40,383 bases of DNA from Candidatus Bipolaricaulota bacterium (GCA_035528115.1 DATKZF010000001.1:226312-266694), one strand, 5' to 3'. Shown: positions 671 to 40,383, counted from the stretch's first letter. Numbers and translations: made by a program. Notes: a model not told the origin generated them from the sequence alone.

Positions 671-672
671 AT

Positions 673-1368: not shown

Positions 1369-1370
1369 AA

Positions 1371-2831: not shown

Positions 2832-2890
2832 ACAATGAGATTATTATATCAATAATTATAACGACTGACAATTTATCAAAATCGGTAAAA

Positions 2891-2922
2891 CAAAAAACCC
2901 CTTTGTTTCAAGGGATTTTTTT
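2891..2922 (-). terminator. Weak bidirectional hairpin terminator downstream of rpsI
   Basis: CCCTT-tgtttc-AAGGG stem flanked by an A-run and a T-run. The stem is only 5 bp. Confidence 0.45.
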
Positions 2923-2931
2923 ATATCAAAT

Positions 2932-3435: not shown

Positions 3436-3451
3436 AATTTCTTGCGCGATC

Positions 3452-3814: not shown

Positions 3815-3817
3815 ATT

Positions 3818-4243: not shown

Positions 4244-4245
4244 AT

Positions 4246-5046
4246 TTATTTATCCTTCTTAGATTTTTTCTTTGGTTTCTTTTCTTCAACTTCTTCCATT
4301 TCTTCAACCTCGGCCGGGACCTCCTCAACCGAAGCTTCGGCCATAACCGGTTCAACCGTTTTCTCTCCCACCAACAAATTAAGATGGTCAATCAATATCT
4401 GCGAAGCCGCTTTAACCGCTTCTTTGGGAGAAATCGTGCCGTCGGTTTCAATATCCATTACCAATTTGTCGTAATTTGTTATATCACCCACGCGAATATC
4501 TTCGCGCTTAAAACCGATATTTTTAAGAGGAGAAAACAAAGCGTCTATTAAAATAGTGCCGATTTCCAAATCCTCTTTGCTTCTTTCTTCCGTAGCCAAA
4601 TAACCTCTGCCTTGACTGACCGTAATTTCCATTTCCAGCTCCGAATCCTTATCCGTTAAACTGGCGATGTGCAAATCCTGATTGATAATTTCAACTTGAG
4701 CGTTTTTATCAATGTCAGCCGCGGTAATTTCCTTTTTACCTTTTACTTTCAATGTTAACTTCTGCGGCTCTTCGGAAAAAACTTTCAATCTCATCAATTT
4801 CAAATTCAGACACACTTCCAAAGCATTTTCCTTAACATTCTTTATGGCTGAAAATTCCTGATCCACGCCTTTTATTTTCACGGCCGTCGCAGCCGCTCCG
4901 GGCAAAGATGACAACAGCACCCTTCTCAAGGCGTTGCCGATCGTTGTGCCGTACCCCATATACATCGGCTCAATAGTCAAAGTGGCCTGATTTTCCTCAG
5001 CGCCATCTTGGTATTGGATTTTTGACGGTAAAAGTAATGATTCCAT
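4246..5046 (-). CDS. rpoA: DNA-directed RNA polymerase alpha subunit, N-terminal domain only (no alpha-CTD)
   Basis: 266 aa. GYGTTIGNALRRVLLSSLPGAA marks the alpha-NTD. After about residue 225 there is only an acidic/Lys tail, EEVPAEVEEMEEVEEKKPKKKSKKDK. Confidence 0.88.
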   Translation of the reverse strand: MESLLLPSKIQYQDGAEENQATLTIEPMYMGYGTTIGNALRRVLLSSLPGAAATAVKIKGVDQEFSAIKNVKENALEVCLNLKLMRLKVFSEEPQKLTLKVKGKKEITAADIDKNAQVEIINQDLHIASLTDKDSELEMEITVSQGRGYLATEERSKEDLEIGTILIDALFSPLKNIGFKREDIRVGDITNYDKLVMDIETDGTISPKEAVKAASQILIDHLNLLVGEKTVEPVMAEASVEEVPAEVEEMEEVEEKKPKKKSKKDK

Positions 5047-5135
5047 AATTTATTCCGATCCCCCTCCTTTTTATTCTTTATTGAATAAATCGGCAATTTT
5101 GACCGGATTTATTTTAGCCGACAAGCGTCGGTTAA

Positions 5136-5765
5136 TTACCTAGAATAATATTCAACGATTTGCTTCATGTCAAAGTCGGTAACGGATTTTTTGAAATCCG
5201 GAGCAGCCAGCACTTTGGCTGACATGGTTTTCAGATCGAAATACAACCATTCCGGCGATTCCTGCGTTTTAAGTCTCTCCGCCGCGTTTTTGAATAACGG
5301 CGTCTCCAAGCTCTTTTTCTTTACATCTATGGCATCATTGACCTTCAATTGATAAGATGGGATATTCACTTTTTTGCCATTAATAAGGAAATGTCCATGA
5401 CCGATCATCTGCCTGGCCTGATTTCTCGATGTTGCCAAGCCTAAACGAAAAATAACATTATCGAACCTGCTTTCAAGCATGGTGAAAAAGTGCTCTTCGG
5501 AATTTCCTTTTTTCCTGGTCGCTTTTTTGAAATATAAAGAAAACTGATTTTCTTTGATGTTATACAATCTCCTGGCGGTTTGCTTTTCCCTCAGCTGTCT
5601 GCCGTAAACCGACATTTTTCTGGTCGGGCCTTGTTTATGTCCATGCTGACCGGGCAGATAATTTCTTTTTACAATGGCGCATTTGCTGGTATTGCAACGA
5701 TCACCTTTCAAAAAAAGCTTTTTACCTTCCCTCCGGCATAATTTGCACATTAAACTTTTTTTCAT
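5136..5765 (-). CDS. rpsD: 30S ribosomal protein S4
   Basis: 209 aa. Has a CRREGKKLFLKGDRC zinc-ribbon-like N-terminus and an S4 domain (FRLGLATSRNQARQMIGHGHFLINGKKV). Confidence 0.92.
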   Translation of the reverse strand: MKKSLMCKLCRREGKKLFLKGDRCNTSKCAIVKRNYLPGQHGHKQGPTRKMSVYGRQLREKQTARRLYNIKENQFSLYFKKATRKKGNSEEHFFTMLESRFDNVIFRLGLATSRNQARQMIGHGHFLINGKKVNIPSYQLKVNDAIDVKKKSLETPLFKNAAERLKTQESPEWLYFDLKTMSAKVLAAPDFKKSVTDFDMKQIVEYYSR

Positions 5766-5769
5766 AATA

Positions 5770-6159
5770 TTACACTTTTCTTGGCTTGCGACGTCTGCAA
5801 CCGTTATGCGGTATCGGAGTGACGTCCTTAATTGATAAGACGTTAATGCCGTTGGCGTTCAATCCTCTGATCGCCGCTTCTCGACCCAAGCCGACACCCT
5901 TGACGAAAACATGGACGTCTTTAAGGCCGTATGGCTGAGCTTTCTCGGCCGCGTTCTTAACGATGATCGAAGCCGCGAACGGCGTGGCTTTTTTGGGTCC
6001 TCTAAAACCGTTCAACCCGGCGCTCGACCAAGCGAGCACATTCCCTGTCTGATCGGTCAAAGTCACCAATGTATTATTATAAGTGGACTTAATATAAGCT
6101 CGGCCCAGCGGGGTCTGCTTGATTATTTTTTTCTTCTTGGATTTTGAAATTTGTGCCAT
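5770..6159 (-). CDS. rpsK: 30S ribosomal protein S11
   Basis: 129 aa. Contains NNTLVTLTDQTGNVLAWSSAG and PHNGCRRRKPRKV. Confidence 0.93.
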   Translation of the reverse strand: MAQISKSKKKKIIKQTPLGRAYIKSTYNNTLVTLTDQTGNVLAWSSAGLNGFRGPKKATPFAASIIVKNAAEKAQPYGLKDVHVFVKGVGLGREAAIRGLNANGINVLSIKDVTPIPHNGCRRRKPRKV

Positions 6160-6179
6160 ATTTATTTATTCTTCAAAAT

Positions 6180-6569
6180 TTATGTTTTCTGCGCCGTTGT
6201 CTTCTTACCGCTGCCCATGGTAACTCTCTTGTTGCCTCTGACCGTGCGGCTGTTGGTCTTGGTTCGCTGACCTCTGACCGGCAATTTTTTCATGTGCCTT
6301 AAACCGCGGAACGACTTAATGTCTTTATACCTTTTAATATTGGAAACAACTTCTCGTCTCAAATCTCCTTCAACATGGTATTCTTTTTCAATAATATCTC
6401 TTAACACGTTGGTTTGGTTTTCAGTCAAGTCTTTAACTCTGATATTGGGATCGATTTTCGCTTTAACCAAAATGTCCTTGGCGATTTTCGTGCCAATGCC
6501 ATAAATATAAGTCAATGAAATTTCGACTCTTTTTTCTTTTGGAATTGTAACTCCTGCGATTCTGGCCAT
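6180..6569 (-). CDS. rpsM: 30S ribosomal protein S13
   Basis: 129 aa. Begins [26 protein letters not shown]. Confidence 0.93.
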
Positions 6570-6575
6570 AATTTT

Positions 6576-6641
6576 TCATCATTTATCACATATCATGGAG
6601 CACATATCATTTGATACATGATTCATATTCCATGTTACATG
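6576..6641. repeat. Degenerate heptamer tandem repeat, locus E1 (family WTYCATG)
   Basis: A 14-nt doublet (cacatatcatggag / cacatatcatttg) is followed by the units atacatg|attcata|ttccatg|ttacatg. It lies between the rpmJ stop and the rpsM start. Confidence 0.6.
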
Positions 6642-6645
6642 AAAA

Positions 6646-6759
6646 TTATCCTTGCCTTTGTTTATGCTTGGGATTTTTGCAAATGACGTGGACTCTTCTT
6701 TTTCGAACCACGATTTTGCAATCTTTACAAATTTTTTTTACGGACGCTTGCACTTTCAT
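6646..6759 (-). CDS. rpmJ: 50S ribosomal protein L36
   Basis: Below the ORF-track size cut-off. Manual translation gives [37 protein letters not shown] (37 aa). Position between infA and rpsM is as expected. Confidence 0.9.
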
Positions 6760-6827
6760 ATGTCATTCGTTTTCTTCAAATATTAAATCGATCATTAAAA
6801 AACCAACCTCAATATTTTTTTAACATC

Positions 6828-7046
6828 TCAAAATCTATAAACAATTCTGCCTTTGGTGAGATCGTACGGAGTCAGCTCCACCTTCACTTCGTCTCCGGGC
6901 AAAATTTTAATCTTATGGATTCTCATTTTACCGGAAAGATGAGCCAAAATATCGTGTCCGTTGTCCAATTTAACTTTGAACATGGCAGCGGGAAGCTTTT
7001 CTTCCACCTTGCCGCGCATCTCAATGAATTCGTTTTTCTTTCCCAT
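6828..7046 (-). CDS. infA: Translation initiation factor IF-1
   Basis: [72 protein letters not shown] (72 aa). The track ORF is extended to an upstream ATG at 7073. Confidence 0.9.
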
Positions 7047-7072
7047 GAATATTAAATTAAAAATGTAATTCA

Positions 7073-7100
7073 ATTATATAGGATAATAAAATTCAGTCAA
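7073..7100 (-). promoter_or_regulatory. Sigma70-like promoter for infA
   Basis: On the minus strand: TTGACT, a 16-nt spacer, then TATAAT, about 27 nt upstream of the infA ATG. Confidence 0.55.
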
Positions 7101-7232
7101 CCCGCAAATCAGCTCAACTGAAGCTTTTTTATCAAAATTACATTTTTCTATCGCAATATAAATACTATCGAATTTTTACAAAATTGTCAAATTATGAGGC
7201 TAAATAACGGGGATATCCGCTGATTATTGAAA

Positions 7233-7254
7233 AAACCGCTAAGTTTAGCGGTTT
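7233..7254 (-). terminator. Rho-independent terminator of the GC-rich ORF
   Basis: The minus strand reads AAACCGCTAAACTTAGCGGTTTTTTCAAT. The stem overlaps the stop codon at 7253-7255. Confidence 0.7.
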
Positions 7255-7765
7255 ATGCGGCGTCGAACAGATATTTTGCTCTCGCCAGGAGACGGGCCCT
7301 GGCCTCGCTTCGGTACGCTTGCGGAAGCATCAAGTGAATGCACGCTCCAAGAATATTCGAGTAAAACGCAGGGCGGGCCAGCTCGCGCCAGAAGCTCTCG
7401 CAACCCAACCGATTCGTGACCGTGGGGCCGAGCTTTCTTTGAAGCTCTGCAAGGAGCAAATCAATCAGCTTGACGTCCTCGTCGCAGAGAGAGCACAGCC
7501 GAATGAACATACGAGCGTGCTCAATCAAGCTGTCGAGCGCGTCGCGACGGCTCGAGCCCAAAACGACCAGGTTAATCTCGCGCGAAAGCGCGAGCGGCGG
7601 CTCGCGCAGGGCCTTGGCGATGCGCGCGATGGCTTGGGCGCGCTTTTGCGCCACGGAAACGCGAAGGCGGCGAAACGGGTTGAGGTTGCCGACAACCTCG
7701 CTGAATACTCCCTTCACCCGTTTTTCCGCCTCTCCGAAACACAAGCCCATATGCTCGAGCGTCAT
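7253..7765 (-). CDS. Hypothetical protein, GC-rich orphan (predicted all-helical)
   Basis: 170-aa ORF with an ATG start. The terminator is on the minus strand. G+C is much higher than in the neighbours. I recognise no family. Confidence 0.5.
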   Translation of the reverse strand: MTLEHMGLCFGEAEKRVKGVFSEVVGNLNPFRRLRVSVAQKRAQAIARIAKALREPPLALSREINLVVLGSSRRDALDSLIEHARMFIRLCSLCDEDVKLIDLLLAELQRKLGPTVTNRLGCESFWRELARPAFYSNILGACIHLMLPQAYRSEARARLLARAKYLFDAA

Positions 7766-28330: not shown

Positions 28331-30154
28331 TTATCGTTTCAGCACCGCGATGAACGCCTCAGGCGGAATATTCACCCTGCCTTTGCCCATGGCCATCATT
28401 TTCTTCTTGCCTTTCTTTTGCTTTTCCAAAAGTTTTGATTTTCTGGTCCAATCGCCGCCATATAAGTTAGCCGTAACATCCTTTTTCATGGCGGAAATTC
28501 TCTCGGCCGCGATGATTTTGCCGCCGACCGCGGCCTGCAATTTGATCACGAACATTTGCCGCGGAATGGATTCTTTCAGTTTTTGCACGATTTTCTTGCC
28601 TTCCTTGAACGCCTCGTCGCGATAAACAATGGTGGAAAACGCGTCCACTTTTTCTTCGGCGATCAAAATGTCCAATTTGACCACGTCGGTCGATTCATAA
28701 TGAGCGAGTTCGTAATTCATGGAAGCGTAACCCGAGCTGACCGTTTTCAATTGATCGTAAAAATCAACGATCACTTTGGCCAGCGGCATGCGGTAATGCA
28801 AAAGCGCGGTGCTGTCATCAATATATTCCGTATTCAAATACTCTCCTCTTTTATCCTGCACCAGCGACATGACATTGCCGATAAAATCTTTCGGCGAGAT
28901 AATATCGACTTTCATGATCGGTTCCTCGACTTTCTCTGAGATCGAAACCTCCGGCAGGTCATTCGGGTTATTGATAATGTATTCGCGCTCGGACAATATT
29001 TGTTTCGGTTTGACGTCTTTGGGCATTTTATTACCCGGTCGCAAAGTAATTTTAAACGCCACGCTGGGCACGGTGACCATGATGTCCAGATTGAATTCTC
29101 GGCGCAGTCGTTCCTGAAATATTTCCAGATGAAGCAATCCCAAAAAACCGCAACGGAAACCAAGCCCGAGCACGGGCGAATTCTCCGGTTCGTAAACCAA
29201 AGCCGCGTCGTTTAATTTCAATTTGGAAACAGCTTCGCGCAAATCATTGAAGTCAGAACCTTCTTTGCAAAAAATACCGGCGTACACCATCGGTTTTACC
29301 TGCTTGTATCCCAGCAAAGGCCGGGGCGTCGGATTTTTCAGCGAAGTGATGGTATCTCCGACCTGGCACAATTCAATATCTTTCAACGCGGTGATTACGT
29401 AACCGACATCGCCCGCTTTCAGTTCCGACGCGACGGTCAAAGCCGGTTTCAATACGCCGACTTCGAGCGCTTCGCTTTCTTTGGCCGGGTTCATGAATAA
29501 AATTTTATCGCCTTGAGCCAATTTGCCGTTCATCACTCGTATATAAGCGACGACGCCTCTGTATTCATCATAAAACGAATCGAATATAAGCGCCTGCAAT
29601 TTATCATCAACATTGCCCTTTGGCGCGGGCACTTTTTCAATGATCCGATCAAGCAATTCGAGCACGCCCTGGCCGGTTTTGCCGGAAACGAGCAAAATCT
29701 CGTCTTCCTGGCAACCGATCAAATTCATCAATTCTTTTTTCGTTTTTGCAATATCGGCGGCGGGCAAATCAATTTTATTTAGCACGGGAATGATTTCCAA
29801 ATTCGATTCGAGCGCCAAATACAAATTCGTCAAAGTCTGGGCCTGCACGCCTTGCGTGGCGTCAACCAATAAAATCGCGCCTTCGACCGCGGCCAAGGAT
29901 CGCGAAACTTCGTAGCTAAAATCAACGTGACCCGGAGTATCAATCAAATTCAAAATATAATCCTTGTACAACATCTGCGCTGGCTGAAGTTTAATGGTAA
30001 TGCCGCGTTCGCGTTCAAGATCCATCGAATCCAAAATCTGCTCTTTCATTTTTCGTTTCTCAACAGTTCCGGTCAATTCCAAAAGCCGATCGGCCAGAGT
30101 GGATTTTCCGTGATCTATGTGAGCAATAATGCAGAAATTTCGGATGTTATTCAT
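28331..30154 (-). CDS. lepA: Translation elongation factor 4 (LepA)
   Basis: Begins MNNIRNFCIIAHIDHGKSTLADRLL and has the LepA C-terminal domain. The track start is a GTG at 30187. Confidence 0.92.
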   Translation of the reverse strand: MNNIRNFCIIAHIDHGKSTLADRLLELTGTVEKRKMKEQILDSMDLERERGITIKLQPAQMLYKDYILNLIDTPGHVDFSYEVSRSLAAVEGAILLVDATQGVQAQTLTNLYLALESNLEIIPVLNKIDLPAADIAKTKKELMNLIGCQEDEILLVSGKTGQGVLELLDRIIEKVPAPKGNVDDKLQALIFDSFYDEYRGVVAYIRVMNGKLAQGDKILFMNPAKESEALEVGVLKPALTVASELKAGDVGYVITALKDIELCQVGDTITSLKNPTPRPLLGYKQVKPMVYAGIFCKEGSDFNDLREAVSKLKLNDAALVYEPENSPVLGLGFRCGFLGLLHLEIFQERLRREFNLDIMVTVPSVAFKITLRPGNKMPKDVKPKQILSEREYIINNPNDLPEVSISEKVEEPIMKVDIISPKDFIGNVMSLVQDKRGEYLNTEYIDDSTALLHYRMPLAKVIVDFYDQLKTVSSGYASMNYELAHYESTDVVKLDILIAEEKVDAFSTIVYRDEAFKEGKKIVQKLKESIPRQMFVIKLQAAVGGKIIAAERISAMKKDVTANLYGGDWTRKSKLLEKQKKGKKKMMAMGKGRVNIPPEAFIAVLKR

Positions 30155-30289
30155 ATATATAAACAAAGATTGAATGAATTTTAACACAATTTCCTATAAA
30201 AAACAAGGATGAAAAACCTGCCAATCAATTATTTAAAAAAAATTAAAGGCCCATTGATGTGATCGCCGGGCCGGGTGATGGTTCAGTCG

Positions 30290-30707: not shown

Positions 30708-31058
30708 TTACAGCCGCGAATTGCCGTGCCGATCAGGCTCCAACGCCTCTTTGACCGAACAGTAGCCGTCAGCGACCAGCTCCGACAGCAGGAGCTCACG
30801 CTCGCCCCCGATTTCCCCCTCGAAAAACATATGGCTGACCGGCCGACCATCATCTTCGAGAAGCTGGATCACGGGATCGGATGCTTCCGGATCTTTCACC
30901 TGGACGCATCTGCTCCAACATCTTTCGCCCACGCAGATGATGGGCGGACTATGCCCGCAGAAAGAAAGCACTGCCCTAAAATCGCAGTGCGCGATCTTCT
31001 GGGCGACATTCCAATGCCTGCCAAAGATGGCCTCATCCGATCTGGCTTGTTCACTCAT
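30708..31058 (-). CDS. Hypothetical Cys/His-containing protein, GC-rich island 3 (116 aa)
   Basis: The ATG overlaps the recombinase TGA (ATGA). Contains HCDF...FCGHSPPIICVGERCWSRC. I recognise no family. Confidence 0.45.
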   Translation of the reverse strand: MSEQARSDEAIFGRHWNVAQKIAHCDFRAVLSFCGHSPPIICVGERCWSRCVQVKDPEASDPVIQLLEDDGRPVSHMFFEGEIGGERELLLSELVADGYCSVKEALEPDRHGNSRL

Positions 31059-31888
31059 TTTTCCCCTCCTGAAGTGGGATTGCTATTGCCAAGGCCAGTC
31101 CACTGCGGGGATGTCACTTGAGTGTAAATCTGAGTGGTGCGAATATTCTGATGTCCCGAAAGCTCCTGGACATAGCGAATACTGACTCCGTTTTCGAGTA
31201 AATGGGTGGCAAAGCTGTGGCGGAGCGAATGAAAAGTGGCGTCTTTTTTTATATTCGTTTTCTTTAACGCTTTTTCAAATATCAGCTGGGCCGTTCGAGA
31301 AGTCAACTTCCCTCCCCTCTCGCTTTCAAAAACCAATTCGTCTTTGCCTTTGCCGGCGATCAAATTCAGTAGGTCATTTTTTAATTTTTCCGGAAAAATG
31401 GTCAGGCGATCTTTTCCGCCTTTAGCTTTTTTAACGTGAATGAATAATTGATTCAGATCCAAATCCTTAACCTTCAAATTTATCACCTCGCTCACTCGAA
31501 GGCCGGCGCCGTAAGCGATAGAAACCAATAATTTGTGTTTTTGATTATTGATGGTGTTCATTAACTCGGAAATTTCGGAGCGAGACAGAACCACGGGCAA
31601 TTTTTTCGATCTTTTGGCGAATTTGATATCTATTTTTTGATCTGACTTGATTACCTCATGATAAAAATATTTGATGGAATTCAAATATAGATTCACGGTT
31701 TGCGAAGAAAACCCTTTATCATATTTTTTTAACAAAAATTCCTTAATGGATTGAATATCAAGTTGTTCAAAATCAAGCTTCTTGTAATTGAAATAATCTC
31801 GCAGGCATAAAAGATAGCTTTTGGTTGTTTTAGGACTGTAATTGCGCAATCGCAATTCAATCTTCACCGCGTCCAAATATTTTTGCAT
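31055..31888 (-). CDS. Tyrosine site-specific recombinase, compact Xer-like (277 aa)
   Basis: SAM-like N-terminal domain (RLRNYSPKTTKSYLLCLRDYF). Catalytic motifs are AGLRVSE, KGGKDR, HSLRHSFATHLL and GHQNIRTTQIYTQV. The last 18 codons lie in GC-rich DNA. Confidence 0.88.
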   Translation of the reverse strand: MQKYLDAVKIELRLRNYSPKTTKSYLLCLRDYFNYKKLDFEQLDIQSIKEFLLKKYDKGFSSQTVNLYLNSIKYFYHEVIKSDQKIDIKFAKRSKKLPVVLSRSEISELMNTINNQKHKLLVSIAYGAGLRVSEVINLKVKDLDLNQLFIHVKKAKGGKDRLTIFPEKLKNDLLNLIAGKGKDELVFESERGGKLTSRTAQLIFEKALKKTNIKKDATFHSLRHSFATHLLENGVSIRYVQELSGHQNIRTTQIYTQVTSPQWTGLGNSNPTSGGEK

Positions 31889-31944
31889 AAATTGAGATTT
31901 TTTGATAAAATTATATCCGGAACATAGAATAAATTTATCATAAA

Positions 31945-32007
31945 TTCACATAACAAACAAAATCGGACGCATTATGCGAAATGTTTTCGCATAGAAACCA
32001 GTTAGGC
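31945..32007 (+). other. Primary (attI-like) recombination site A
   Basis: TTCACATAAC box (31945-31954), a small hairpin ATGCGAAA-tgt-TTTCGCAT, then AGAAACCA-GTTAGGC (32001-32007, which matches GTTRRRY). Confidence 0.5.
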
Positions 32008-32041
32008 AAAATGTGGCACAAATTTTTTAACTTTAATTCAC

Positions 32042-32482
32042 ATGAGTATGTCAATTGAACATCGAGAGAATCCTCCACAGAGAGAGCTAATAGTAACAAC
32101 TGTCGATTTATCCAAAGGCTGGGATACCGAATCCATGCGCGATATTCTAATCGAACGGCTAAAAGAGCTTGGTATCTATCAGCCAAACCTGCTTTTTAGA
32201 GGTTTTGATGGTAATAAAATAGAAGTTATCAAACAACATGGGACAGACATTCCTGATGATACAGTTATTTTTTGCTCTACCGAAGGCCAACTTGTTGATG
32301 AATATGCAATGGAAGAATCAGCACTAGATTTTTCTTTAGGACAAGAAAAAGCAGGTTTGGCTGTATACGATGGGGCCAGACTCTTTAAAGATAGTAGTAA
32401 ATATGGTTCAGGATATGAATACCAACCAAAAAAGGGAACCAGTTTTAAGGAGGCTCTTTTAGCCGTTCTGATTTTGGAGTAA
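32042..32482 (+). CDS. Hypothetical protein, cassette 1 (146 aa)
   Basis: ORF with an ATG start. The stop abuts site B. I recognise no family. Confidence 0.55.
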   Translation: MSMSIEHRENPPQRELIVTTVDLSKGWDTESMRDILIERLKELGIYQPNLLFRGFDGNKIEVIKQHGTDIPDDTVIFCSTEGQLVDEYAMEESALDFSLGQEKAGLAVYDGARLFKDSSKYGSGYEYQPKKGTSFKEALLAVLILE

Positions 32483-32647
32483 AATTTGTGCCACACATCG
32501 CCTAACACGCAGTATGCGACTACGTTTTGCTCCGTTTCACTCCGCAAAACTCCGTCCATGTTTGCCCGTGGTAAGCTCCCGCTGGTCGCAAATTTTACCA
32601 CGGGCAAACATCGCATACTGCGAAACGTTATGTGAAATGCATGTTTT
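32481..32647 (+). other. attC/dif-like folded site B (end of cassette 1 / start of cassette 2)
   Basis: GCCTAAC (32500-32506). A 12-bp stem pairs 32508-32519 with 32611-32622. Internal hairpins are at 32524-32550 and 32558-32611 (17 bp). It ends CGAAAC-GTTATGTGAAAT (32621-32638). Confidence 0.6.
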
Positions 32648-32804
32648 ACTTTTGGGCTATCGCCCAGCTCTAAAAAAGAATTTGAATTTTGTTTTTTTAT
32701 TTATTAGAAAGGGGTATAAGGTTTTTTCTCCGCTCCGCTACGAAAACGATTTATTTATAAGGGGAAAACGAATACAATAACATTGCTTAACATGAAAAGA
32801 ATTT

Positions 32805-34613
32805 ATGCCAAAAATTAAGGATATACCAAAAATTGATCGCCCAAGAGAAAGGTTTCTAAAAAAAGGGGCTGACGCACTTTCAAAAAGTGATCTTTTGGCA
32901 ATTCTTTTGGGTAGCGGAATTAAGGGGAAAAATGTTAGGCAGCTTTCTGAGAATATCATTAAAAAATTTGGTAAAAACTTTTTGAATATAACCGTTGATG
33001 ATCTTTTGGAAATTTCAGGAATCGGACAAGCAAAAGCATTGCAAATCACTTCCGCGATTTCATTGGTAAAAAGATTTTACGACGAAAACAAAACCAACGA
33101 GATTGTTATAAAAAATTCTCAAGATATTTTATCCCTTACTTACGATTTAAGAGACAAGAAAAAAGAACATTTAGTTTGTCTTTATTTAAACGCACGAAAT
33201 ATTTTGTTGAGAAAAGAAGTTGTTAGTGTCGGTCTTTTAGATAAGGCATTATTACATCCGAGAGAAATTTTTTATCCTGCAACCGAGCTAAACGCCGCCA
33301 GCGTTATTTTGGTTCACAATCACCCTTCAGGCGATTCTTCACCAAGTGAAAAAGACAATCAAATTATTGAAAAAATCGTGCAGGCTGGCGAAATAATGGG
33401 GATACCAGTCATTGATTTTATTATTATTTCTCAAAACAATCATTGCAGTTTCTACGAGAAGTTAAATAAGCAAAAATCAAGTATCGATTATGTTGCAGAC
33501 GGAATACAAGGAACTCTTTTTGCGATGCTTGAAACTGAGCGACCAACCTATGAAATAACCGCCGAAAAAATCCAAGAAAATTATTTTTATATCCCACAAG
33601 TAAAAGAAAACCATCTTCAATTACACAATCGCAGATATATTGGCAACAAACACAAGTTAATTGAATGGATTTTTTCTATAATAAATAAAGAATGCAGTGG
33701 AAATTCTTTTGCGGATATTTTTGCAGGAACGGGTGTTGTATCCGCTGTTGCAACCAAACACTTCGAAAAAGTTTTATTAAACGACTTTCTCCATTCAAAT
33801 TACGCAATATATCGGGCTTTTTTTGGAAACGAGGCATGGGATAAAGTCAAAATCGATAACATTATTAAGAATTATAACAATATTTATGGCGATGACTTAG
33901 AAGAAAATTATTTTTCTAAAAATTTCGGTGGTAAATTTTTTAGTAAAAATTCAGCGAAAATCATCGGCTTTATTCGTGAAAATATAGAGGAAAACAGGAA
34001 AAACTTAACCGAAAGAGAATACTATATGTTGATCGCCTCATTGCTTTATACTGCCGATAAAATCGCCAACACAGTTGGACATTTTGACGCTTATTTCAAG
34101 AAGGAATTTGTAAATGATAGCTTTTTTATGAAACCGATTGATCCGATAGATACGCAAGAAATATCAATTTTTCAAGAAGATACAAACAATCTGGCAAAAA
34201 AAATAAATGCCGATGTCGTTTATATCGACCCACCCTACAACTCAAGACAATACAGCAGATTCTACCATGTGCTTGAAACATTAACTAAGTGGGATAAACC
34301 AATACTTTTTGGCGTAGCACTAAAACCAGAGCCAGAGAATATGAGCGACTACTGCCGAGCTAATGCCAAAGATAAATTTGCGGAACTCGTGAAAGACCTT
34401 GACGCTAAATATTTGGTTGTTTCATACAATAACACTTACGATTCAAAAAGTAATTCCTCAAAAAACAAAATCACGCTCCAAGAGATTGAACAGATTTTGC
34501 AGACAAAAGGACCAACCAAAGTTTTTGAAAAAAAATATAGACATTTTAATGCAGGCAATACAAATTTCAATAATCACAAGGAATACCTGTTTGTAACAAA
34601 ATCAAAGATATGA
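32805..34613 (+). CDS. Fusion protein: RadC-like JAB/MPN domain + N6-adenine DNA methyltransferase (D12/Dam class, M.FokI-like)
   Basis: Residues 1 to about 225 are RadC-like (DRPRERFLKKGADALSKSDLLAILLGSG, VHNHPSGDSSPSEKD). Residues from about 260 to 602 are methyltransferase (RYIGNKHKL, FADIFAGTGVV, VYIDPPYNSRQY). Confidence 0.8.
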   Translation: MPKIKDIPKIDRPRERFLKKGADALSKSDLLAILLGSGIKGKNVRQLSENIIKKFGKNFLNITVDDLLEISGIGQAKALQITSAISLVKRFYDENKTNEIVIKNSQDILSLTYDLRDKKKEHLVCLYLNARNILLRKEVVSVGLLDKALLHPREIFYPATELNAASVILVHNHPSGDSSPSEKDNQIIEKIVQAGEIMGIPVIDFIIISQNNHCSFYEKLNKQKSSIDYVADGIQGTLFAMLETERPTYEITAEKIQENYFYIPQVKENHLQLHNRRYIGNKHKLIEWIFSIINKECSGNSFADIFAGTGVVSAVATKHFEKVLLNDFLHSNYAIYRAFFGNEAWDKVKIDNIIKNYNNIYGDDLEENYFSKNFGGKFFSKNSAKIIGFIRENIEENRKNLTEREYYMLIASLLYTADKIANTVGHFDAYFKKEFVNDSFFMKPIDPIDTQEISIFQEDTNNLAKKINADVVYIDPPYNSRQYSRFYHVLETLTKWDKPILFGVALKPEPENMSDYCRANAKDKFAELVKDLDAKYLVVSYNNTYDSKSNSSKNKITLQEIEQILQTKGPTKVFEKKYRHFNAGNTNFNNHKEYLFVTKSKI

Positions 34614-35515
34614 CTACCAAGATAAGAAGATCCCCATTATTTTATGTCGGGGATAAATACAAACTGATGAAACAACTGGAAAATTTATTTCCTAAAGAAA
34701 TAAATAATTTTTACGAACCTTTTGTCGGCGGAGGTACGGTATTTTTGAATATTGAAGCAAAAAAGTATTTTCTCAATGACATAGACAAACACCTGATAAA
34801 TATTCAAAAACTTTTAATCGCCAGTTCAAAAAATCCAGAAAAGTTTTTCAAGGATGCCGAAAAAATAATCCACAAATATAAATTTTCGCATTCATATAAA
34901 AATGATATTGTCCCCGATTCGTTAAAAAAGGAGTTTAAAAAAACCTATTACGCAAGATTTAATAAGGAAGGTTACGATAAATTAAGAATGAGCGTAAATA
35001 ATTATCAAAAAAACGACCCCTTGATTTTATACATTTTGCTTATTTATGGATTTAATAGAATGTTAAGATTCAATGGCGGAGGAAAATTTAATTTACCTGT
35101 TGGCAATGTTGATTTTAATAAAAATGTTATAAACGCCTTAAACGGCTACTTTGATTTTGTACAAAATAAAAAAATATCTATAACATCAAAAGATTTTAAA
35201 AAGTTTTTTTCTGACAAAAAATATTCAAAAAACGATTTTGTATATTTAGACCCTCCATACTTAATATCCGCAAGCGAATATAATAAATTATGGAACAAGG
35301 AATTAGAAGCTGATTTATTAAAAATGATCGATGTCTTAGACAAAAAAGGCGTTAAATTTGCCTTATCAAATGTTACTCACTATAACGGGAGTAAAAATGA
35401 TTTATTATTGGAATGGATGAAAAAATACAAGGTACACAAAATTGAAAGCAATTATATTAATTATCATAACAACGGCAAAAAGATAATTAAAGAAGTTTTG
35501 ATTACTAACTATTAA
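34610..35515 (+). CDS. N6-adenine DNA methyltransferase (Dam/D12 class)
   Basis: 301 aa. Contains YVGDKYKL, EPFVGGGTVFLN and VYLDPPYLIS. An ATGA overlap couples it to the upstream methyltransferase. Confidence 0.85.
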   Translation: MTTKIRRSPLFYVGDKYKLMKQLENLFPKEINNFYEPFVGGGTVFLNIEAKKYFLNDIDKHLINIQKLLIASSKNPEKFFKDAEKIIHKYKFSHSYKNDIVPDSLKKEFKKTYYARFNKEGYDKLRMSVNNYQKNDPLILYILLIYGFNRMLRFNGGGKFNLPVGNVDFNKNVINALNGYFDFVQNKKISITSKDFKKFFSDKKYSKNDFVYLDPPYLISASEYNKLWNKELEADLLKMIDVLDKKGVKFALSNVTHYNGSKNDLLLEWMKKYKVHKIESNYINYHNNGKKIIKEVLITNY

Positions 35516-35519
35516 AATT

Positions 35520-37037
35520 ATGACTAAACGACAATCTGAATACAAACCATTGCTATTTACAACAACAATGAGAAATCCTGAACGGTTGAAGGATTTTTTG
35601 ACCGTACTTGCGGAATATGACGGCGAAATTTTAACAAACGAAATTATTGATAAAGTCGCCAAATCCTTAATACAAAAAGGATTATACCAGCCCATGAAAG
35701 TATCTTCGGCCGTAAAAGATAAATGGAAAAATGAGATTGAATTAAGCGAAACTGAAACCGAAAAAGTATTTTCTGACAACCCTCAAAGCCACAAAGAAGC
35801 AGGGTTTGAAAAAGGATGGCCATCAAGATTCGATACTTGGTTTAAAATTGCCAAAGAACTTGGCTTCGTTTGGTATTGGCAAAATGAAGAAATAAAATTT
35901 TCCGAAAGCGGAAATATGTTATTAGACAAAGAAAAGCCAGAAAATGAGTTAATGGTTTTTGCCAATGCTTTTGCGAAATATCAACGCCAAAATCCATTTC
36001 GTCGCGTTTTAAATAAAAATGTTCCGCTTATTTTACTTATACAAACCATAAAACTTTTGAATAATGACCCAGCATACAAGGGGGCTGGTATATCCAGATC
36101 GGAAATACCATTGTTGTTGTGTTGGAAAAACGATAATGCTGAAAGTTTATATCGAGAAATTAAAAAATTACGCAAAAAACATGGTTATACACCGAGCAAC
36201 GAAGTGATTTTAGATATTTGCTACGAATTACTAAACGAAACAAAGAGAGATGATAATTCAATCCTCGGTGATTATCCTGACGATTTTATACGAAAAATGC
36301 GTTTAACTGGCTTACTTTCTTTGCGTGGCGGTGGTCGTTTCATAGATATAAACTCAAAAGAATCTGCAACTGTGGATTATATTTTGAAAAATTATATTTC
36401 CTACAAAGAATTTGAAACGGAAAAAGAATTTTTTGAATATATCGGACAAGTTGATCACGATTTAATCTCAACGCTTACCGTATTTGAAGCACCAGCAAAA
36501 ACCACAAAAGCAGAATTGGAAAAATGGGTTGATCATTATGCTTGGGATTCAATTAAAACCGAACTTCTTAATTTGGCACAGAAAAAATCTTCTAGCGATG
36601 ATATTTTGAAAATCATTGAACAACCTTTGCGATTGGAATTTTTAACTTCATTGGCAATTCTCAAAAAATTACCGAATGTTATTGTAAAACCTAACTTTAT
36701 ATCCGATGACGAAGGACTGCCAACAAGTTTTGCGTCTGGCGGAAGCCCTGACATTGAATGTTTAGAAGAAAAAGACACGGTTTTGATCGAAGTAACTTTA
36801 CTGACTGGAACGCAACAGCATATCAGAGAGTCGTTTTCTATACATCGACACCTTGAAGAATATGTAAAAAAAGGCACAAAATCATATTCCGTGTTTATCT
36901 CGCCAAAATCTTTTATTGATACCGAACGCTACTTTGATTTTATCAAAAAGGATGGTTTGGAAGTGAGGATCTCAAATATTGATAAATTTGTTAATAGCCT
37001 TGAAATGAAAACGACATTAAGCGAGGCAACCCTTTAA
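35520..37037 (+). CDS. AlwI-family (type IIS-like) restriction endonuclease
   Basis: 505 aa. The N-terminus LLFTTTMRNPERLKDFL, RKMRLTGLLSLRGGGRFIDIN and GGSPDIECLEEKDTVLIEVTLLTGTQQ resemble AlwI/N.BstNBI-family blocks (PD...EVT) as I recall them. Confidence 0.7.
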   Translation: MTKRQSEYKPLLFTTTMRNPERLKDFLTVLAEYDGEILTNEIIDKVAKSLIQKGLYQPMKVSSAVKDKWKNEIELSETETEKVFSDNPQSHKEAGFEKGWPSRFDTWFKIAKELGFVWYWQNEEIKFSESGNMLLDKEKPENELMVFANAFAKYQRQNPFRRVLNKNVPLILLIQTIKLLNNDPAYKGAGISRSEIPLLLCWKNDNAESLYREIKKLRKKHGYTPSNEVILDICYELLNETKRDDNSILGDYPDDFIRKMRLTGLLSLRGGGRFIDINSKESATVDYILKNYISYKEFETEKEFFEYIGQVDHDLISTLTVFEAPAKTTKAELEKWVDHYAWDSIKTELLNLAQKKSSSDDILKIIEQPLRLEFLTSLAILKKLPNVIVKPNFISDDEGLPTSFASGGSPDIECLEEKDTVLIEVTLLTGTQQHIRESFSIHRHLEEYVKKGTKSYSVFISPKSFIDTERYFDFIKKDGLEVRISNIDKFVNSLEMKTTLSEATL

Positions 37038-37049
37038 TTATTATTACCT

Positions 37050-38060
37050 ATGAAAAAAATTGATAAAAAAGAATTGAAAGAAATAATCCAAAGCGGACAT
37101 ATCAACCTGCTTATTGGTTCTGGCTGTTCACTCGATTATCTTACAACTCTCAAAGATATTGAAGATCGGATGAATAATGAAGAGACCAAAGGGCAGGCGC
37201 AAAAGGATTACTACAAATTAATAAAAAAATCCAAAGCCATCCTCGACGAATCGCTTGAAATTAATATTACCGAGAAAACAAAATTGACCAAAACAAAGCA
37301 AAACTATGATTCTTTTTTAGGATTTTGGGCTAACACAATTTCCAGTCGATTTTTGCATATCGTAAATAAGCAAGTGAATATTTTCACCACAAATTTCGAT
37401 ATGTTTATGGAGGATTCCTGTGAAAGGTTAGCTATTCCATACAATGATGGGTTTGCCGGTCAAATAAATCCGAATTTTAGTGTTGCAAACTTTAACAAAG
37501 TTCAGAGATATAAGAGTTTGCAGTTTGACAATACTTCAGACATTCCACTTTTTAACATTATCAAGCTACACGGATCAATTTCTTGGAAAGCAGAAAACGA
37601 AAAAATTGTTTATTCAAACGGAAAGCATATTGCCGATGACCTCGATGACAAAACAGGAAATGATTTTGATGACGAATATAAGAAGATTGCTGTTATCAAT
37701 CCAAATGCGGAAAAACACTTTGAGACTGTTCTTGATACAAACTATGCCTCAATGTTGCGGAAGTTTACTTTGGAATTAGAAAAAGAAAATAGTGTTTTAA
37801 TGCTGATTGGTTTTTCCTTAGCGGATAAACATATCAAAAATCTCTTGGATGGAGTGATGAAGTCTAACCCTACTTTAGTCGTCGTTTATTTCTCGTATTC
37901 TCAATACGACGAAACTGCTGACAAATTAAATGAAAAACAAAATTCAAATCTATACATAATTTCCCCAGAAGCAGATTTTTCTTTTGAGAAAACGACAGAT
38001 TATCTTTCTCAGATTTTTGTTAATTCTGATATTCCCGAACAAAATGAAGATGAAAATTAA
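37050..38060 (+). CDS. SIR2-like domain protein (SIR2_2 type), defence-associated
   Basis: 336 aa. Contains LLIGSGCSLDYL, IFTTNFDMFMED and IIKLHGSISW. Confidence 0.8.
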   Translation: MKKIDKKELKEIIQSGHINLLIGSGCSLDYLTTLKDIEDRMNNEETKGQAQKDYYKLIKKSKAILDESLEINITEKTKLTKTKQNYDSFLGFWANTISSRFLHIVNKQVNIFTTNFDMFMEDSCERLAIPYNDGFAGQINPNFSVANFNKVQRYKSLQFDNTSDIPLFNIIKLHGSISWKAENEKIVYSNGKHIADDLDDKTGNDFDDEYKKIAVINPNAEKHFETVLDTNYASMLRKFTLELEKENSVLMLIGFSLADKHIKNLLDGVMKSNPTLVVVYFSYSQYDETADKLNEKQNSNLYIISPEADFSFEKTTDYLSQIFVNSDIPEQNEDEN

Positions 38061-39951
38061 TTTCAATTTACAAGAACGATTAATGAATGATTCCGTTTTT
38101 ACAATCGGAAGCGTTTTTAGTGTAAAAGGAAAAGATATTATCGTTAAAGTTAATAAAGATAAAAATCTTCCGCATTTGTTTTTTAAGGGCAGAACTATTA
38201 AAAATGTATCTGTCGGACTGTCAAATTATGTAAAAATCCTCAAAGGATTTACCGAGATTATTTGTAAGGTTGAGGGTGAATATCTTGAAGAAGATAAATA
38301 CCAAAAGAACAAAAAGTACACAAACGAAAAGCAAAAGATAGATCGCTTCCTCAATGTTTCCGTTTTTGGTTTTTATGATAATGACAGGAAATTCCAACAC
38401 GGTATAAAAGAAATGCCACTTATCGGAAGTGAGTGTAAACTGCTTTCAAGAGATGAATTTGAAAAACTTCATCAGCTTTCTGGAAAAGATGAACTTTCTA
38501 TCCACCTTGGGTCTTTGATAGACGAAGAAACTCAAAATATTTTTATATCCGTTAAAAAACTGTTTGCTGGACACATTGGGATCTTTGGTAATACAGGTTC
38601 TGGAAAATCCAATACTCTTGCAAAAATGTACACAGAATTATTTAGGTTAGAATTAAATGATAATTTCAAGACTAAATCCAAGTTTGTTTTTATAGACTTC
38701 AATGGAGAGTACTCAAAAGATAGCGATGACGAAATTTTAACGAAAAATAAAATCGTTTATAAATTGAGAACAAAAGATAATACGGGAAAAAAATATCCCA
38801 TATTGAAAACAGAAATTGAAAAACTGGAACTTTTATCTATTTTACTCGATGCCACAGAGAAAACGCAGCAACCATTTTTACACAGAGCGATAGATAGTAG
38901 GGATTGGTTTGATACTGATAACGAAAATTTTCGCAAGGAAAGGGATAATTTATTGAGAAATCTAAAAATTATTCTAAATAAAAATGAACCGAATTTCAAT
39001 CAACCATTTTTGAAAAAATTTGTTGCTGATTTCAAGAGTATTGGTGTGCAAATGCTGAAAAAAGAATACGAGCAAGAGAAAAATATTGATGATATAACCT
39101 ATAACATAACCCAAAAGAGTTTTATGGTGAGCGGGAAGTATCATAATGATAGTATTACTGATACTAGCCGCCAAATAGATATTGCCAATGAGTATTTTGA
39201 TATAAAAATTGAATCATTTACAGATCTACAAAAAATCCAGTTTAAAATATTTGATCAGTATTATCATGAAATACTGAATGGGTATGCAAATCAAGAGCAC
39301 ATAAGCCCCCTAATTGGAAGATTGAAAAAGAGATTTGATATGTTGGATAAAGTTTTTGATATTAAAGACTCCATAACAGAAGAAGCTAATTCAAATATTC
39401 AGGTTGTTGACCTTAAAAATGTAAATTTAGAGATTAAAAAAGTCATTCCACTTTTAATCTGCAAAACAAATTACGACGAGCAGAAAAATAAAAGAGACAC
39501 TGATAAGGATAATTCGCTAAATATCATAATTGACGAAGCTCACAATATTCTCTCAGAAAACTCCAACAGAGAATCGGAATCTTGGAAAGATTATCGACTA
39601 GAAACATTTGAAGAAATAATAAAAGAAGGAAGAAAATTTGGTGTTTTTCTAACAGTCGCCAGTCAAAGACCGTCTGATATTTCGCCAACAATTATCTCCC
39701 AATTACACAATTATTTCATTCACAGGCTAATGAATGATAATGATTTGAAAGCGATAAACAAAGCTGTTAGCTATCTTGATAAACTTTCCTTTGATTCAAT
39801 CTCTAATCTTTCTGTGGGTTGTTGTTTTATTGCAGGACAAATGACTCAATTCCCGTTGTCAGTAAAGGTTAAATTGCTTGATGAGAATGAACGCCCACAG
39901 AGCGAAACTATTGACCTTGATAAATTATGGAAAAAACATGAAGATTCATAA
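38044..39951 (+). CDS. HerA/FtsK-like (DUF87) ATPase, partner of SIR2
   Basis: Walker A is GIFGNTGSGKSNTLAKM and Walker B is NIIIDEAHNIL. Also KEGRKFGVFLTVASQRPSDISPTIISQLHNYFIHRL. The track start is a TTG at 37984. I prefer the ATG at 38044 (or 38050), which overlaps the SIR2 stop. Confidence 0.82.
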   Translation: MKMKINFNLQERLMNDSVFTIGSVFSVKGKDIIVKVNKDKNLPHLFFKGRTIKNVSVGLSNYVKILKGFTEIICKVEGEYLEEDKYQKNKKYTNEKQKIDRFLNVSVFGFYDNDRKFQHGIKEMPLIGSECKLLSRDEFEKLHQLSGKDELSIHLGSLIDEETQNIFISVKKLFAGHIGIFGNTGSGKSNTLAKMYTELFRLELNDNFKTKSKFVFIDFNGEYSKDSDDEILTKNKIVYKLRTKDNTGKKYPILKTEIEKLELLSILLDATEKTQQPFLHRAIDSRDWFDTDNENFRKERDNLLRNLKIILNKNEPNFNQPFLKKFVADFKSIGVQMLKKEYEQEKNIDDITYNITQKSFMVSGKYHNDSITDTSRQIDIANEYFDIKIESFTDLQKIQFKIFDQYYHEILNGYANQEHISPLIGRLKKRFDMLDKVFDIKDSITEEANSNIQVVDLKNVNLEIKKVIPLLICKTNYDEQKNKRDTDKDNSLNIIIDEAHNILSENSNRESESWKDYRLETFEEIIKEGRKFGVFLTVASQRPSDISPTIISQLHNYFIHRLMNDNDLKAINKAVSYLDKLSFDSISNLSVGCCFIAGQMTQFPLSVKVKLLDENERPQSETIDLDKLWKKHEDS

Positions 39952-39957
39952 ACAAAT

Positions 39958-40010
39958 AAAAGGCAAAAATTCCCTCCCCTTAAACCCCTTCCTTTTTGCC
40001 TTTTATTTGA
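39958..40010 (+). terminator. Rho-independent terminator after the HerA gene
   Basis: 12-bp stem AAAAGGCAAAAA/TTTTTGCCTTTT with a 23-nt C-rich loop, followed by a T-run. Confidence 0.65.
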
Positions 40011-40023
40011 AGAGAATAAGGAG

Positions 40024-40072
40024 TTTTGGATTTTGGGCATTCACCCCTAACCCCTCTGCCCAAAATCCAAAA
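40024..40072. repeat. Perfect 16-bp hairpin with a C-rich loop
   Basis: TTTTGGATTTTGGGCA / TGCCCAAAATCCAAAA. The loop is ttcacccctaacccctc. Confidence 0.6.
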
Positions 40073-40133
40073 CAAAAAAAACAAAATTCAAATTCTTTTT
40101 TAGAGCAATCCCGATTGCTATCGGGATTAAAGT

Positions 40134-40254
40134 AAAACATGCACATCACATAACACGGCATATCTGGTTACGGCTTTTATATAAAAGCCTCCACCCATAT
40201 TTGCCTCCGCTACGCTACGGCAAACATCAGATATACCGAAACGTTATGTGAAAT
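40134..40254 (+). other. attC/dif-like folded site C (end of cassette 2)
   Basis: AAAACATGCACATCACATAAC (40134-40154). A stem pairs 40157-40166 with 40228-40237. Internal hairpins are at 40172-40189 and 40197-40227. It ends CGAAAC-GTTATGTGAAAT (40237-40254). Confidence 0.6.
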
Positions 40255-40296
40255 ATTTTTTAATTTTTTTGCTACCATAGAAAAAGACCGTCGGGG

Positions 40297-40383
40297 TTAC
40301 CAACGGTCCTGGGTTGAGGATCTGCTTGTAGTGTTATTCTTCTTCGGATTTGGAGTCCGTGGATGACCAAGGAAAATCATGAG
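40297..40383 (-). CDS. C-terminal end of an unknown ORF entering from the right edge
   Basis: The minus-strand frame reads ...LMIFLGHPRTPNPKKNNTTSRSSTQDRW*. The stop is embedded in the terminator GACCGT..ACGGTC + TTTTT. Too short to assign. Confidence 0.3.
   Translation of the reverse strand, partial: LMIFLGHPRTPNPKKNNTTSRSSTQDRW

Follow-up and report, generated by a model that had tools for sequence, protein, structure and literature searches.

Integrons, sedentary chromosomal ones especially, have a recombinase gene that diverges from a one-directional cassette array and an attI site beside that gene. Their cassettes end in an imperfect palindrome, R''-L''...L'-R', with AAC/GTT triplets, a boundary at G↓TT (the arrow marks the junction throughout) and structure conserved over sequence, and the I2 helix of the integrase IntI contacts extrahelical bases. 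Passages of two papers (PMC4792948; PMC7790495) give as the current view that acquisition of the I2 helix took integron integrases from double- to single-strand recombination, and name CTXphi as the one further reaction that resembles cassette recombination. Here we describe a locus in which a tyrosine recombinase, P0001, stands beside an array of cassettes parted by attC-type sites. It lies on a 40,383-nt stretch of DNA (GCA_035528115.1 DATKZF010000001.1:226312-266694), which in its full length we call the window. We estimate a probability of about 0.7 that the locus is a chromosomal integron-like, probably hairpin-based cassette platform of a Patescibacteria (Candidate Phyla Radiation, CPR) bacterium that uses an Xer-type enzyme. 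The established properties are its architecture, the conserved site geometry, the polarity of the sites and their association with the recombinase, covariation in the L stem, permuted arms, the absence of I2 and the defence cargo. A first-pass annotation, made from the DNA alone, had proposed an integron-like array served by a non-IntI recombinase, and architecture, site geometry, permuted arms and I2 absence agree with that proposal.

P0001 is transcribed away from the cassette array. About 35 related loci, mostly on metagenome contigs, were compared, with recombinases 41-76% identical to P0001. The protein has the Pfam domains Phage_integrase and, at its N-terminus, SAM_4. Its top NCBIfam model was XerA_Arch, the archaeal-type XerA (215.6 bits; cut-off 220); the integron-integrase model TIGR02249 matched in two pieces at 192 bits (cut-off 265), and the XerC and XerD models ranked after these. 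In a PDB search, P. abyssi XerA and V. cholerae IntI4 came out level (E ~2e-38). The alignment to IntI4 (PDB 2a3v) was split into query residues 4-175 and 201-261 against chain residues 5-179 and 248-308, with a gap of 25 residues in the query versus 68 in IntI4. Because the alignment breaks there, about 43 IntI residues, the I2 region, are without a counterpart in P0001. An AlphaFold2 model (mean predicted local distance difference test score, pLDDT, 78.9) had only short strands and no helix at residues 178-196, and P0001 does not possess the I2 alpha-helix specific to integron integrases. With Foldseek, the solved fold nearest to this model was VchIntIA (E 2.7e-17), a point of likeness to integrons, followed by XerA. 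The first-pass annotation had credited the enzyme with all the catalytic motifs, about 90 residues between the box I Arg and the box II His, and Xer-like spacing too short for the extra domain of IntI. All three claims hold: as in a simple Xer-type recombinase, R131, H220, R223, H246 and Y255 are present and show no variation in 31 homologues; R131 and H220 are 89 residues apart; and the split IntI4 alignment and the sub-threshold TIGR02249 match agree on the missing domain.

The homologues of P0001 are about 270 aa long, and an insert-bearing IntI was encoded in none of the retrieved loci. P0001 is thus Xer-sized and Xer-shaped, about equally related to IntI and XerA, and without the hallmark of an integron integrase. 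Homologues 64-76% identical to it are very numerous, and all of those with an organism name belong to the Patescibacteria group except P0002, a paralogue 76% identical to P0001 from the same sample. The NCBI product name 'site-specific tyrosine recombinase/integron integrase' is a naming convention, and no arrays are described by it.

XerS/difSL and XerH/difH are single-recombinase Xer systems, and difSL adjoins xerS, just as a site (site A) adjoins the recombinase gene here. Site A, the attI-type site close to the recombinase, is made up of four Xer-type half-sites and has a centre of 7 nt. Its core has the layout of Xer/dif sites, in which two inverted 11-nt arms flank a centre of 6-8 nt; together with the compact Xer fold and the best-scoring XerA_Arch model, these dif-type arms resemble archaeal XerA/dif. 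The crossover lies between G32001 and T32002, and related loci keep another copy of the TTCGCATAA type, some 50 nt away from the core. In the window as in 16 related loci, the consensus TTCGCATA-n-AAACGA↓GTTNNNNGAAAT was found upstream of the recombinase gene, 101-129 nt from its start codon. Left of G↓TT the sequence is kept across loci; on the right it varies and complements the R'' arm of the first attC-type site. As in integrons, the site adjoins a recombinase gene divergent from the array, and arrays occur on that side only. A promoter-like sequence (Table 1) is positioned like the integron Pc promoter, which we take as a hint only.

Acinetobacter Xer substrates have the form ATTTCGCATAA-GGCGTA-TTATGCGAAAT and ACTTCGTATAA-TCGCCA-TTATGTTAAAT (PMC7399989). 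The arms of the pdif modules on Acinetobacter plasmids, ATTTCGCATAA / TTATGCGAAAT, are nearly identical to those of the window. The likeness to the XerD arm of E. coli dif, pointed out in the first-pass annotation, was borne out, as TTATGTGAAAT is one position off the XerD-type arm TTATGTTAAAT (PMC7399989, its Table 1), and TCGCATA, noticed in sites A and B, was located at 31987-31993 and 32611-32617. Judged by their sequence, the attI-type arms are ordinary, bona fide dif-type Xer arms. The grouping of A, B and C as three related sites needs correction: B and C are indeed attC-type sites, and A is the attI-type site rather than a third member of that class.

An enzyme and a site of this kind could also be the cell's housekeeping Xer and its dif (site A), with tandem insertions of integrative mobile elements exploiting Xer (IMEX), as for CTXphi, TLC and the gonococcal genomic island (GGI), an explanation that overlaps with the one we favour. 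It would account for the XerA-type score of P0001, the 11-7-11 core with its dif-type arms, and the syntenic, vertically inherited position of the gene beside lepA in this lineage. Smyshlyaev et al. place such proteins in a 'Cand' Xer-related subgroup, assumed to consist of Xer replacements in candidate phyla, and CTXphi integrates via Xer as a folded single strand (PMC4792948). However, the sample has two paralogues (76% identity) that come with an attI-type site and a cassette apiece, and both are listed with a longest contig of 266,694 bp. The left-flank genes and the GC skew point away from the locus, which is not terminus-like, and in related locus L010 the genes on both flanks run the same way. 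Unlike in Xer/dif systems, the site heads an array of hairpin-site cassettes. Such arrays are the rule: among the 17 loci with at least 1.5 kb of upstream sequence, 13 had at least one site of strict geometry, the remaining four had motif matches or variant-geometry sites, and no bare dif-like site was seen. We consider a housekeeping Xer with inserted IMEX unlikely.

The right ends of the attC-type sites B and C form a direct repeat (32603-32638 versus 40219-40254, 86%), and GAAACGTTATGTGAAAT occurs exactly twice, at 32622 and 40238. Alignment with sites from related loci revealed a common grammar. Read with the recombinase at the left, the left half consists of an arm of 14-26 nt, (A)CATC NNNN AAC, a single A, an 11-nt L'' stem and GYT. 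After a loop of 20-150 nt, the right half consists of AAC WT, an 11-nt L' stem, (A/G)(A/T)AC and G↓TT NNNN GAAAT, followed by the arm of the next cassette. Exactly this spacing is common to 17 of 19 curated sites, B and C included, and in 16 of those 17 the stem has at most one mismatch (score 8-12). The stem is 11 bp long, and 12 bp in site B. In the 17-site alignment, 97.9% of L-stem positions are paired, none of them as G-T, and the TA in the middle never varies. Eight of the 11 L-stem pairs are altered on both sides, and the covariation score over all 23 pairs (R box, L stem and outer helix) was reached by none of 500 shuffles. These sites are imperfect R''-L''...L'-R' palindromes with AAC/GTT triplets and structure conserved over sequence, as attC sites are.

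The sites also differ from integron attC sites. The R box is a 12-nt dif-type arm, GTTNNNNGAAAT. Where integron sites leave a spacer of 5-6 nt unpaired and have single bases standing out of the helix near L'', the hairpin here has an internal loop of 1x4, an L stem of 11 perfectly paired bp and a bulge of 2 nt. In its L' half (ACWTC-nn-ATA), each site repeats the Xer arm in weaker form, and the folded site would therefore rebuild a two-arm Xer core. The centre of that core has 6 nt on one strand and, with a 3-nt bulge, 9-10 nt on the other; in duplex form the arms stand 9-10 bp apart. The extra nucleotides (+3 and +2) are on the L'/R' side in every case. From the layout of the array we derive that exchange must take place at ATTTCNNNNAA↓C, which GTTT follows, on the same arm as these extra bases. 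Here they thus lie on the exchanged-strand AAC arm, while canonical attC sites have them on the opposite arm (PMC5027507), and the canonical rule for extrahelical bases (a place near L'' and across from the arm with the AAC of the recombined bottom strand) does not hold. A further motif, CTCCGCTACG, was observed in attC-type loops and in the 5' untranslated parts of cassettes, always on the array strand (window 32728-32742 and 40205-40219; L003, L018, L027 and L030). With at most one mismatch it has 5 matches in the window versus 0.75 expected.

The first-pass annotation had noted that the outer left arm of each site pairs with the start of its own cassette. In site B, 32481-32506 is complementary to 32001-32026 at 23 of 26 positions (88%). 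For site C, the reported 19/21 match lies within a 26-nt inverted repeat of 32627-32652 and 40129-40154 with 24 of 26 positions paired (92%). Among GTT/AAC-anchored arm pairs in 31889-40383, these two reached at least 22/26 (best 24); none of 200 shuffles did so (maximum 21). The property is general. In 28 cassettes from 14 sources (the window and 13 related loci), the 26 nt ending in AAC were compared with the 26 nt from GTT at the start of the same cassette. The R'' arm matched its own cassette start at no fewer than 19 of 26 positions, with 3.86 of the 4 N positions paired, versus an average of 12.7/26 and 1.9 of 4 for the next, array-adjacent cassette start. Two mismatches are conserved, A.A and A.C, where GAAAT lies opposite ACATC. 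Long arm pairing is possible only with the cassette ends joined. Complementarity of R'' to its own cassette start is a standard property of integron cassettes, extended here from about 7 bp to 22-75 bp.

Strand-wise folding of B and C as DNA, which had been proposed as a check, gave the same picture: the circular form was much more stable, and the bottom strand was favoured. Site B folded at -56.2 (top) and -61.4 (bottom) kcal/mol in the circular form, and at -42.2 and -44.1 kcal/mol in the array form. Over B and C, the circular form ranged from -56 to -87 and the array form from -19 to -44 kcal/mol, of which only the B pair (178 nt each) compares like for like, as the C constructs were 250 and 147 nt. 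In circular-form folds the bottom strand was 5-8 kcal/mol more stable than the top strand; bottom-strand stability is likewise reported for integron attC sites (PMC5027507).

The arms and folds bear on a second explanation, a duplex 'dif-module' system as on Acinetobacter plasmids, in which inverse Xer cores flank the cassettes and two-strand recombination occurs between directly repeated right-hand cores without any hairpin. Read as duplex, an attC-type site is two back-to-back Xer-like cores, and B and C share the 7-nt CGAAACG beside the strong arm; Xer-type sites bound gene modules in both settings, and Xer-site-flanked modules are treated as an accepted idea in passages of PMC7399989. However, the right-hand duplex core has a centre of 9-10 nt, which folding would turn into 6 nt on one strand with a 3-nt bulge, and the centres of attC-type sites vary in sequence and length among themselves and differ from that of attI. 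A covarying 11-bp palindrome and cassette-specific arms of 22-26 nt that pair only in the circle would have no role in a purely duplex reaction. In contrast to pdif modules, which are plasmid-borne, use the host XerC/D on inverse sites with 6-nt duplex centres and have no hairpin grammar, the platform here is chromosomal (beside lepA and recJ), polar, linked to its own recombinase and built on covarying palindromes. A duplex module system is thus very improbable.

To place the sites relative to the recombinase genes, we scanned for the geometry AAC, 1 nt, 11-nt stem, loop, 11-nt stem, 4-5 nt and GTT, with at least 10 of 11 positions paired. Around recombinases at least 57% identical to P0001, 24 strict sites were upstream in canonical orientation and none upstream in the opposite one, with 2 canonical and 1 opposite downstream. 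For identities of 41-56% the corresponding counts were 10, 1, 0 and 2. Below 41%, about 154 kb of upstream sequence gave no canonical and 1 opposite site, and none were found downstream; no such sites accompanied recombinases at or below 40% identity (L049, L055, L060, L076, L077 and others). Two flank motifs had upstream counts of 51 and 30 in canonical versus 9 and 4 in opposite orientation. R'-like motifs downstream of recombinase genes were rejected as chance matches, being scattered in distance and without site context.

These counts argue against dispersed repetitive extragenic palindromic (REP) or miniature inverted-repeat transposable element (MITE)-like palindromes, or terminators, that lie near the recombinase by chance; dispersed REP-like repeats were one of the findings that, according to the first-pass annotation, would overturn it. 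The sites are intergenic palindromes, as such repeats are, and a loose hairpin scan gives some background matches elsewhere in the window. However, strict sites and both flank motifs are confined to this recombinase family's upstream side and to one orientation, and because of this tie they are not dispersed repeats. Their arms are moreover cassette-specific and permuted, terminator-like T-runs were not found, and no Rfam family matched in the array. We regard chance repeats as extremely improbable.

The array consists of the attI-type core followed by at least three cassettes, parted by B and C (Table 1). PADLOC identified MTase_II, REase_II, SIR2 and HerA in cassette 2, and from these annotations the five-gene block is a type II restriction-modification system plus a SIR2-HerA anti-phage system; anti-phage defence cargo is known from integrons as well. 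A Logan unitig, L098, is consistent with cassette 2. Across the window and 13 related loci, 28 delimited cassettes had a median length of 829 nt (range 112-7528), and in 24 of 27 the longest open reading frame (ORF) was on the array strand. Several cassettes of 4-7.6 kb carry 4-6 genes, including one in L027 with a C5-methyltransferase, an HpaII-type enzyme and a Ppl-like ATPase, and one in L041 with an ABC transporter. Cassettes of up to 7.6 kb with five genes, arms of 22-75 nt and Patescibacteria hosts set the system apart from integrons. Profile searches and PADLOC found no phage, replication or transfer functions in the cargo. The cassettes are therefore not IMEX as defined, that is, self-contained elements with their own replication or transfer functions that borrow the host Xer; the recombinase appears dedicated, with its own adjacent attI, unlike that of CTXphi and IMEX.

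Cassette content varies between relatives, as the first-pass annotation had anticipated. In the closest relative, L095 (LepA 81% and recombinase 73% identical), the order recombinase-lepA-recJ-spermine synthase-RNase H-pilM is kept, and the first cassette differs from that of the window; the L095 assembly ends 241 nt upstream of the recombinase. The start of cassette 2, including the RadC-methyltransferase gene, recurs in L027 (88% over 923 nt) behind a different cassette and with a recombinase 59% identical to P0001. A Logan contig of run SRR8554643 (L002, 1986 bp) carries P0002 together with an attI-type site of its own, one cassette (113 aa) and a site of attC type. G40243 and the first 29 bases of cassette 3 form a 30-mer (40243-40272) that also follows the attC-type site beside P0002, which is a different one. 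This is either a shared cassette or an attC arm family common to two platforms of one organism; cassette starts of 26-30 nt are also common to otherwise unrelated cassettes, so the 30-mer is not proof of the same cassette. L002 was also considered as the right end of the window array, closed by P0002, and rejected, as the site would lack GAAAT and have the extra bases on the wrong side; in reverse orientation it is a normal second platform. An apparent cassette difference between L013 and L014 was rejected as well, being a run of N from a scaffold gap. Look-ups of cassette proteins matched only unitigs of the same locus.

For this platform we infer a single-strand mechanism with a defined strand choice, and ongoing recombination. 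In the scheme we propose, which is that of integrons (PMC5027507, PMC4792948), an excised cassette would be a circle whose attC-type bottom strand folds into a hairpin, so that two half-sites, the R box and the L box, rebuild an Xer core. The monomer bound to the R box would cut at ATTTC-NNNN-AA↓C and swap that one strand with the attI bottom strand, and replication would resolve the junction. Excision would proceed by recombination between two attC-type sites, with predicted circle junctions CGAAACG↓TTATGTGAAATGCATG (40243 to 32628) and CGAAACG↓TTAGGCAAAATG (32627 to 32002). When the strand joins are written out, bottom-strand exchange at ATTTC-NNNN-AA↓C in attI and the folded cassette gives the observed order: attI-left, centre, G↓TT..GAAAT arm, cassette body, arm ACATC..AAC, A, L''...L', AAAC, G↓TT. 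The arrangements predicted from top-strand exchange at R'', or from exchange at the L box, do not match this order. In the window and in 16 related loci, the first junction still has the centre specific to attI (AAACGA↓G), and the junction boundary is at the edge of the strong arm. With the attI centre retained and the attC-type centres differing, there is no shared overlap, and classical two-strand exchange is therefore unlikely. CTXphi and IMEX would have in common with this scheme that an Xer-type enzyme exchanges one strand of a site folded from single-stranded DNA and that replication resolves the product; the unpaired features of the hairpins here are conserved, however, while descriptions of the CTXphi stem make it a duplex mimic.

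Several points weigh against our reading. The extra bases are on the exchanged-strand arm, an arrangement that in integrons disfavours that strand (PMC5027507), and multi-gene cassettes of 4-7.6 kb with their own long perfect inverted repeats are unusual for integrons. Possibly the enzyme is no more than the Xer of the cell, and attI its dif. The evidence is all comparative and all from metagenome assemblies; in these data no excised circle, empty site or junction read was seen, nor did they include a near-identical genome pair that differs by one cassette. The system appears integron-like in its working, yet two of the defining features that were tested, an I2 domain and the canonical position of unpaired bases, are lacking, and its arms are of Xer type.

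We give somewhat less than an even chance to the broader idea that an I2-less, Xer-type clade in Patescibacteria runs genuine single-strand cassette capture with its own grammar, as the ancestral state of integron integrases or as an independent re-invention. If it is true, single-strand capture would also be a main route by which defence systems are exchanged among tiny Patescibacteria genomes. The origin of integrons, missing link versus convergence, becomes directly testable with an I2-less cassette platform, and the new recombinase/site pair is a possible genetic tool. In a full-text literature search, cassette arrays or attC-type sites in CPR bacteria were not found described. IntegronFinder surveys kept only complete integrons with an IntI-specific integrase (PMC12259885, PMC13323075), and most 'integron-type' recombinases were without recognisable attC sites (PMC13323075). 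Pipelines that require an IntI-specific integrase would explain the absence of CPR reports, although the density of defence systems in CPR bacteria is high (PMC12259885).

Table 1. Coordinates of the recombinase, sites, cassettes and neighbouring features (positions in the window)
Feature	Position	Strand	Details
lepA	28331-30187	-	left flank of recombinase
Tyrosine recombinase P0001	31055-31888	-	277 aa, Xer/XerA-like; Pfam, NCBIfam, PDB alignment, AlphaFold2, Foldseek
Promoter-like TTGATA-17-TAGAAT	31902-31930	+	points into array; 10/12 matches; count in region not above chance
attI-type region, accessory half-sites	31943-31982	+	AATTCACATAA 31943-31953; TTATGCGAAAT 31972-31982
attI-type core, dif-like	31984-32012	+	left arm TTTTCGCATAG 31984-31994; centre AAACCAG 31995-32001; right arm TTAGGCAAAAT 32002-32012
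Cassette 1	32002-32627	+	one 146-aa ORF (32042-32482) without family match; site B at end; own-arm 23/26
Site B, attC-type	32481-32638	+	R'' arm 32481-32506; AAC 32504-32506; unpaired A 32507; L'' stem 32508-32519; loop; L' stem 32611-32622; spacer AAAC 32623-32626; R' GTTATGTGAAAT 32627-32638
Cassette 2	32628-40243	+	7.6 kb, five genes; site C at end; own-arm 24/26
Perfect inverted repeat, 32 nt	32667-32698 / 40075-40106		inside cassette 2; left copy preceded by small hairpin TGGGCTATCGCCCA
RadC-JAB/Dam methyltransferase fusion	32805-34613	+	cassette 2; Pfam/NCBIfam
Dam-family methyltransferase	34610-35515	+	cassette 2
AlwI-family restriction enzyme	35520-37037	+	cassette 2
SIR2	37050-38060	+	cassette 2
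HerA	37984-39951	+	cassette 2
Site C, attC-type	40129-40254	+	R'' arm 40129-40154; AAC 40152-40154; unpaired A 40155; L'' stem 40156-40166; loop; L' stem 40228-40238; spacer AAAC 40239-40242; R' GTTATGTGAAAT 40243-40254
Cassette 3, start	40244-40383	+	cut by window end

The window has a G+C content of about 42-50% up to about 31 kb and of about 30-38% from there to its end. Long ORFs up to 31888 are all on the minus strand, and those right of the recombinase are all on the plus strand. A recJ-family gene farther left was found in the matching Logan contig L001. Logan unitigs of run SRR8554643 match the window sequence exactly, the sole break being at the 32-nt perfect inverted repeat of cassette 2. 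The nearest named homologues of LepA (81-65% identity) are all from Patescibacteria, Parcubacteria or Falkowbacteria groups, and because all of these are of the Patescibacteria group we assign the host to the CPR bacteria. NCBI labels the record of P0002 'Candidatus Bipolaricaulota bacterium', while the homologues of LepA and of the recombinase put the contig in Patescibacteria; the Bipolaricaulota bin label may, on these sequences, be wrong.

Large multi-gene cassettes have a hairpin motif (TGGGCTATCGCCCA / AATCCCGATAGCAATCGGGATT) just inside the permuted arms, followed by a long perfect A/T-rich inverted repeat. This repeat, which stands next to a GGGCTATCGCCC motif, measures 32 nt in the window and no less than 22-26 nt in L027 and L041, and k=31 assemblies break exactly there. 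The fusion of a RadC-like JAB domain, accompanied by the UPF0758 N-terminal domain, with a Dam-class methyltransferase, 600-602 aa long, is the first gene of a restriction-modification cassette in two distant arrays, that of the window and that of L027 (215-2017, minus strand). The first cassette of L027 (9163-9855, minus strand) encodes an HNH endonuclease with homing-endonuclease-associated repeats.

No tRNA genes were found. A weak Rfam match to AsrC within lepA (30077-30162; 34 bits versus a gathering score of 111) is almost certainly chance. A 116-aa ORF without family match (30708-31058, minus strand) overlaps the recombinase stop codon by 4 nt, and its G+C content of about 50% is host-like, versus about 38% for the recombinase gene. 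This ORF and a 98-aa ORF are not present in the syntenic L095, where lepA directly follows the recombinase. In close relatives (L095, 1065-3362; P0122, P0125, P0127, P0128), LepA is 765-778 aa long and has a PDDEXK_3 nuclease domain inserted inside its GTPase domain, which may be a homing-type insertion in an essential gene.

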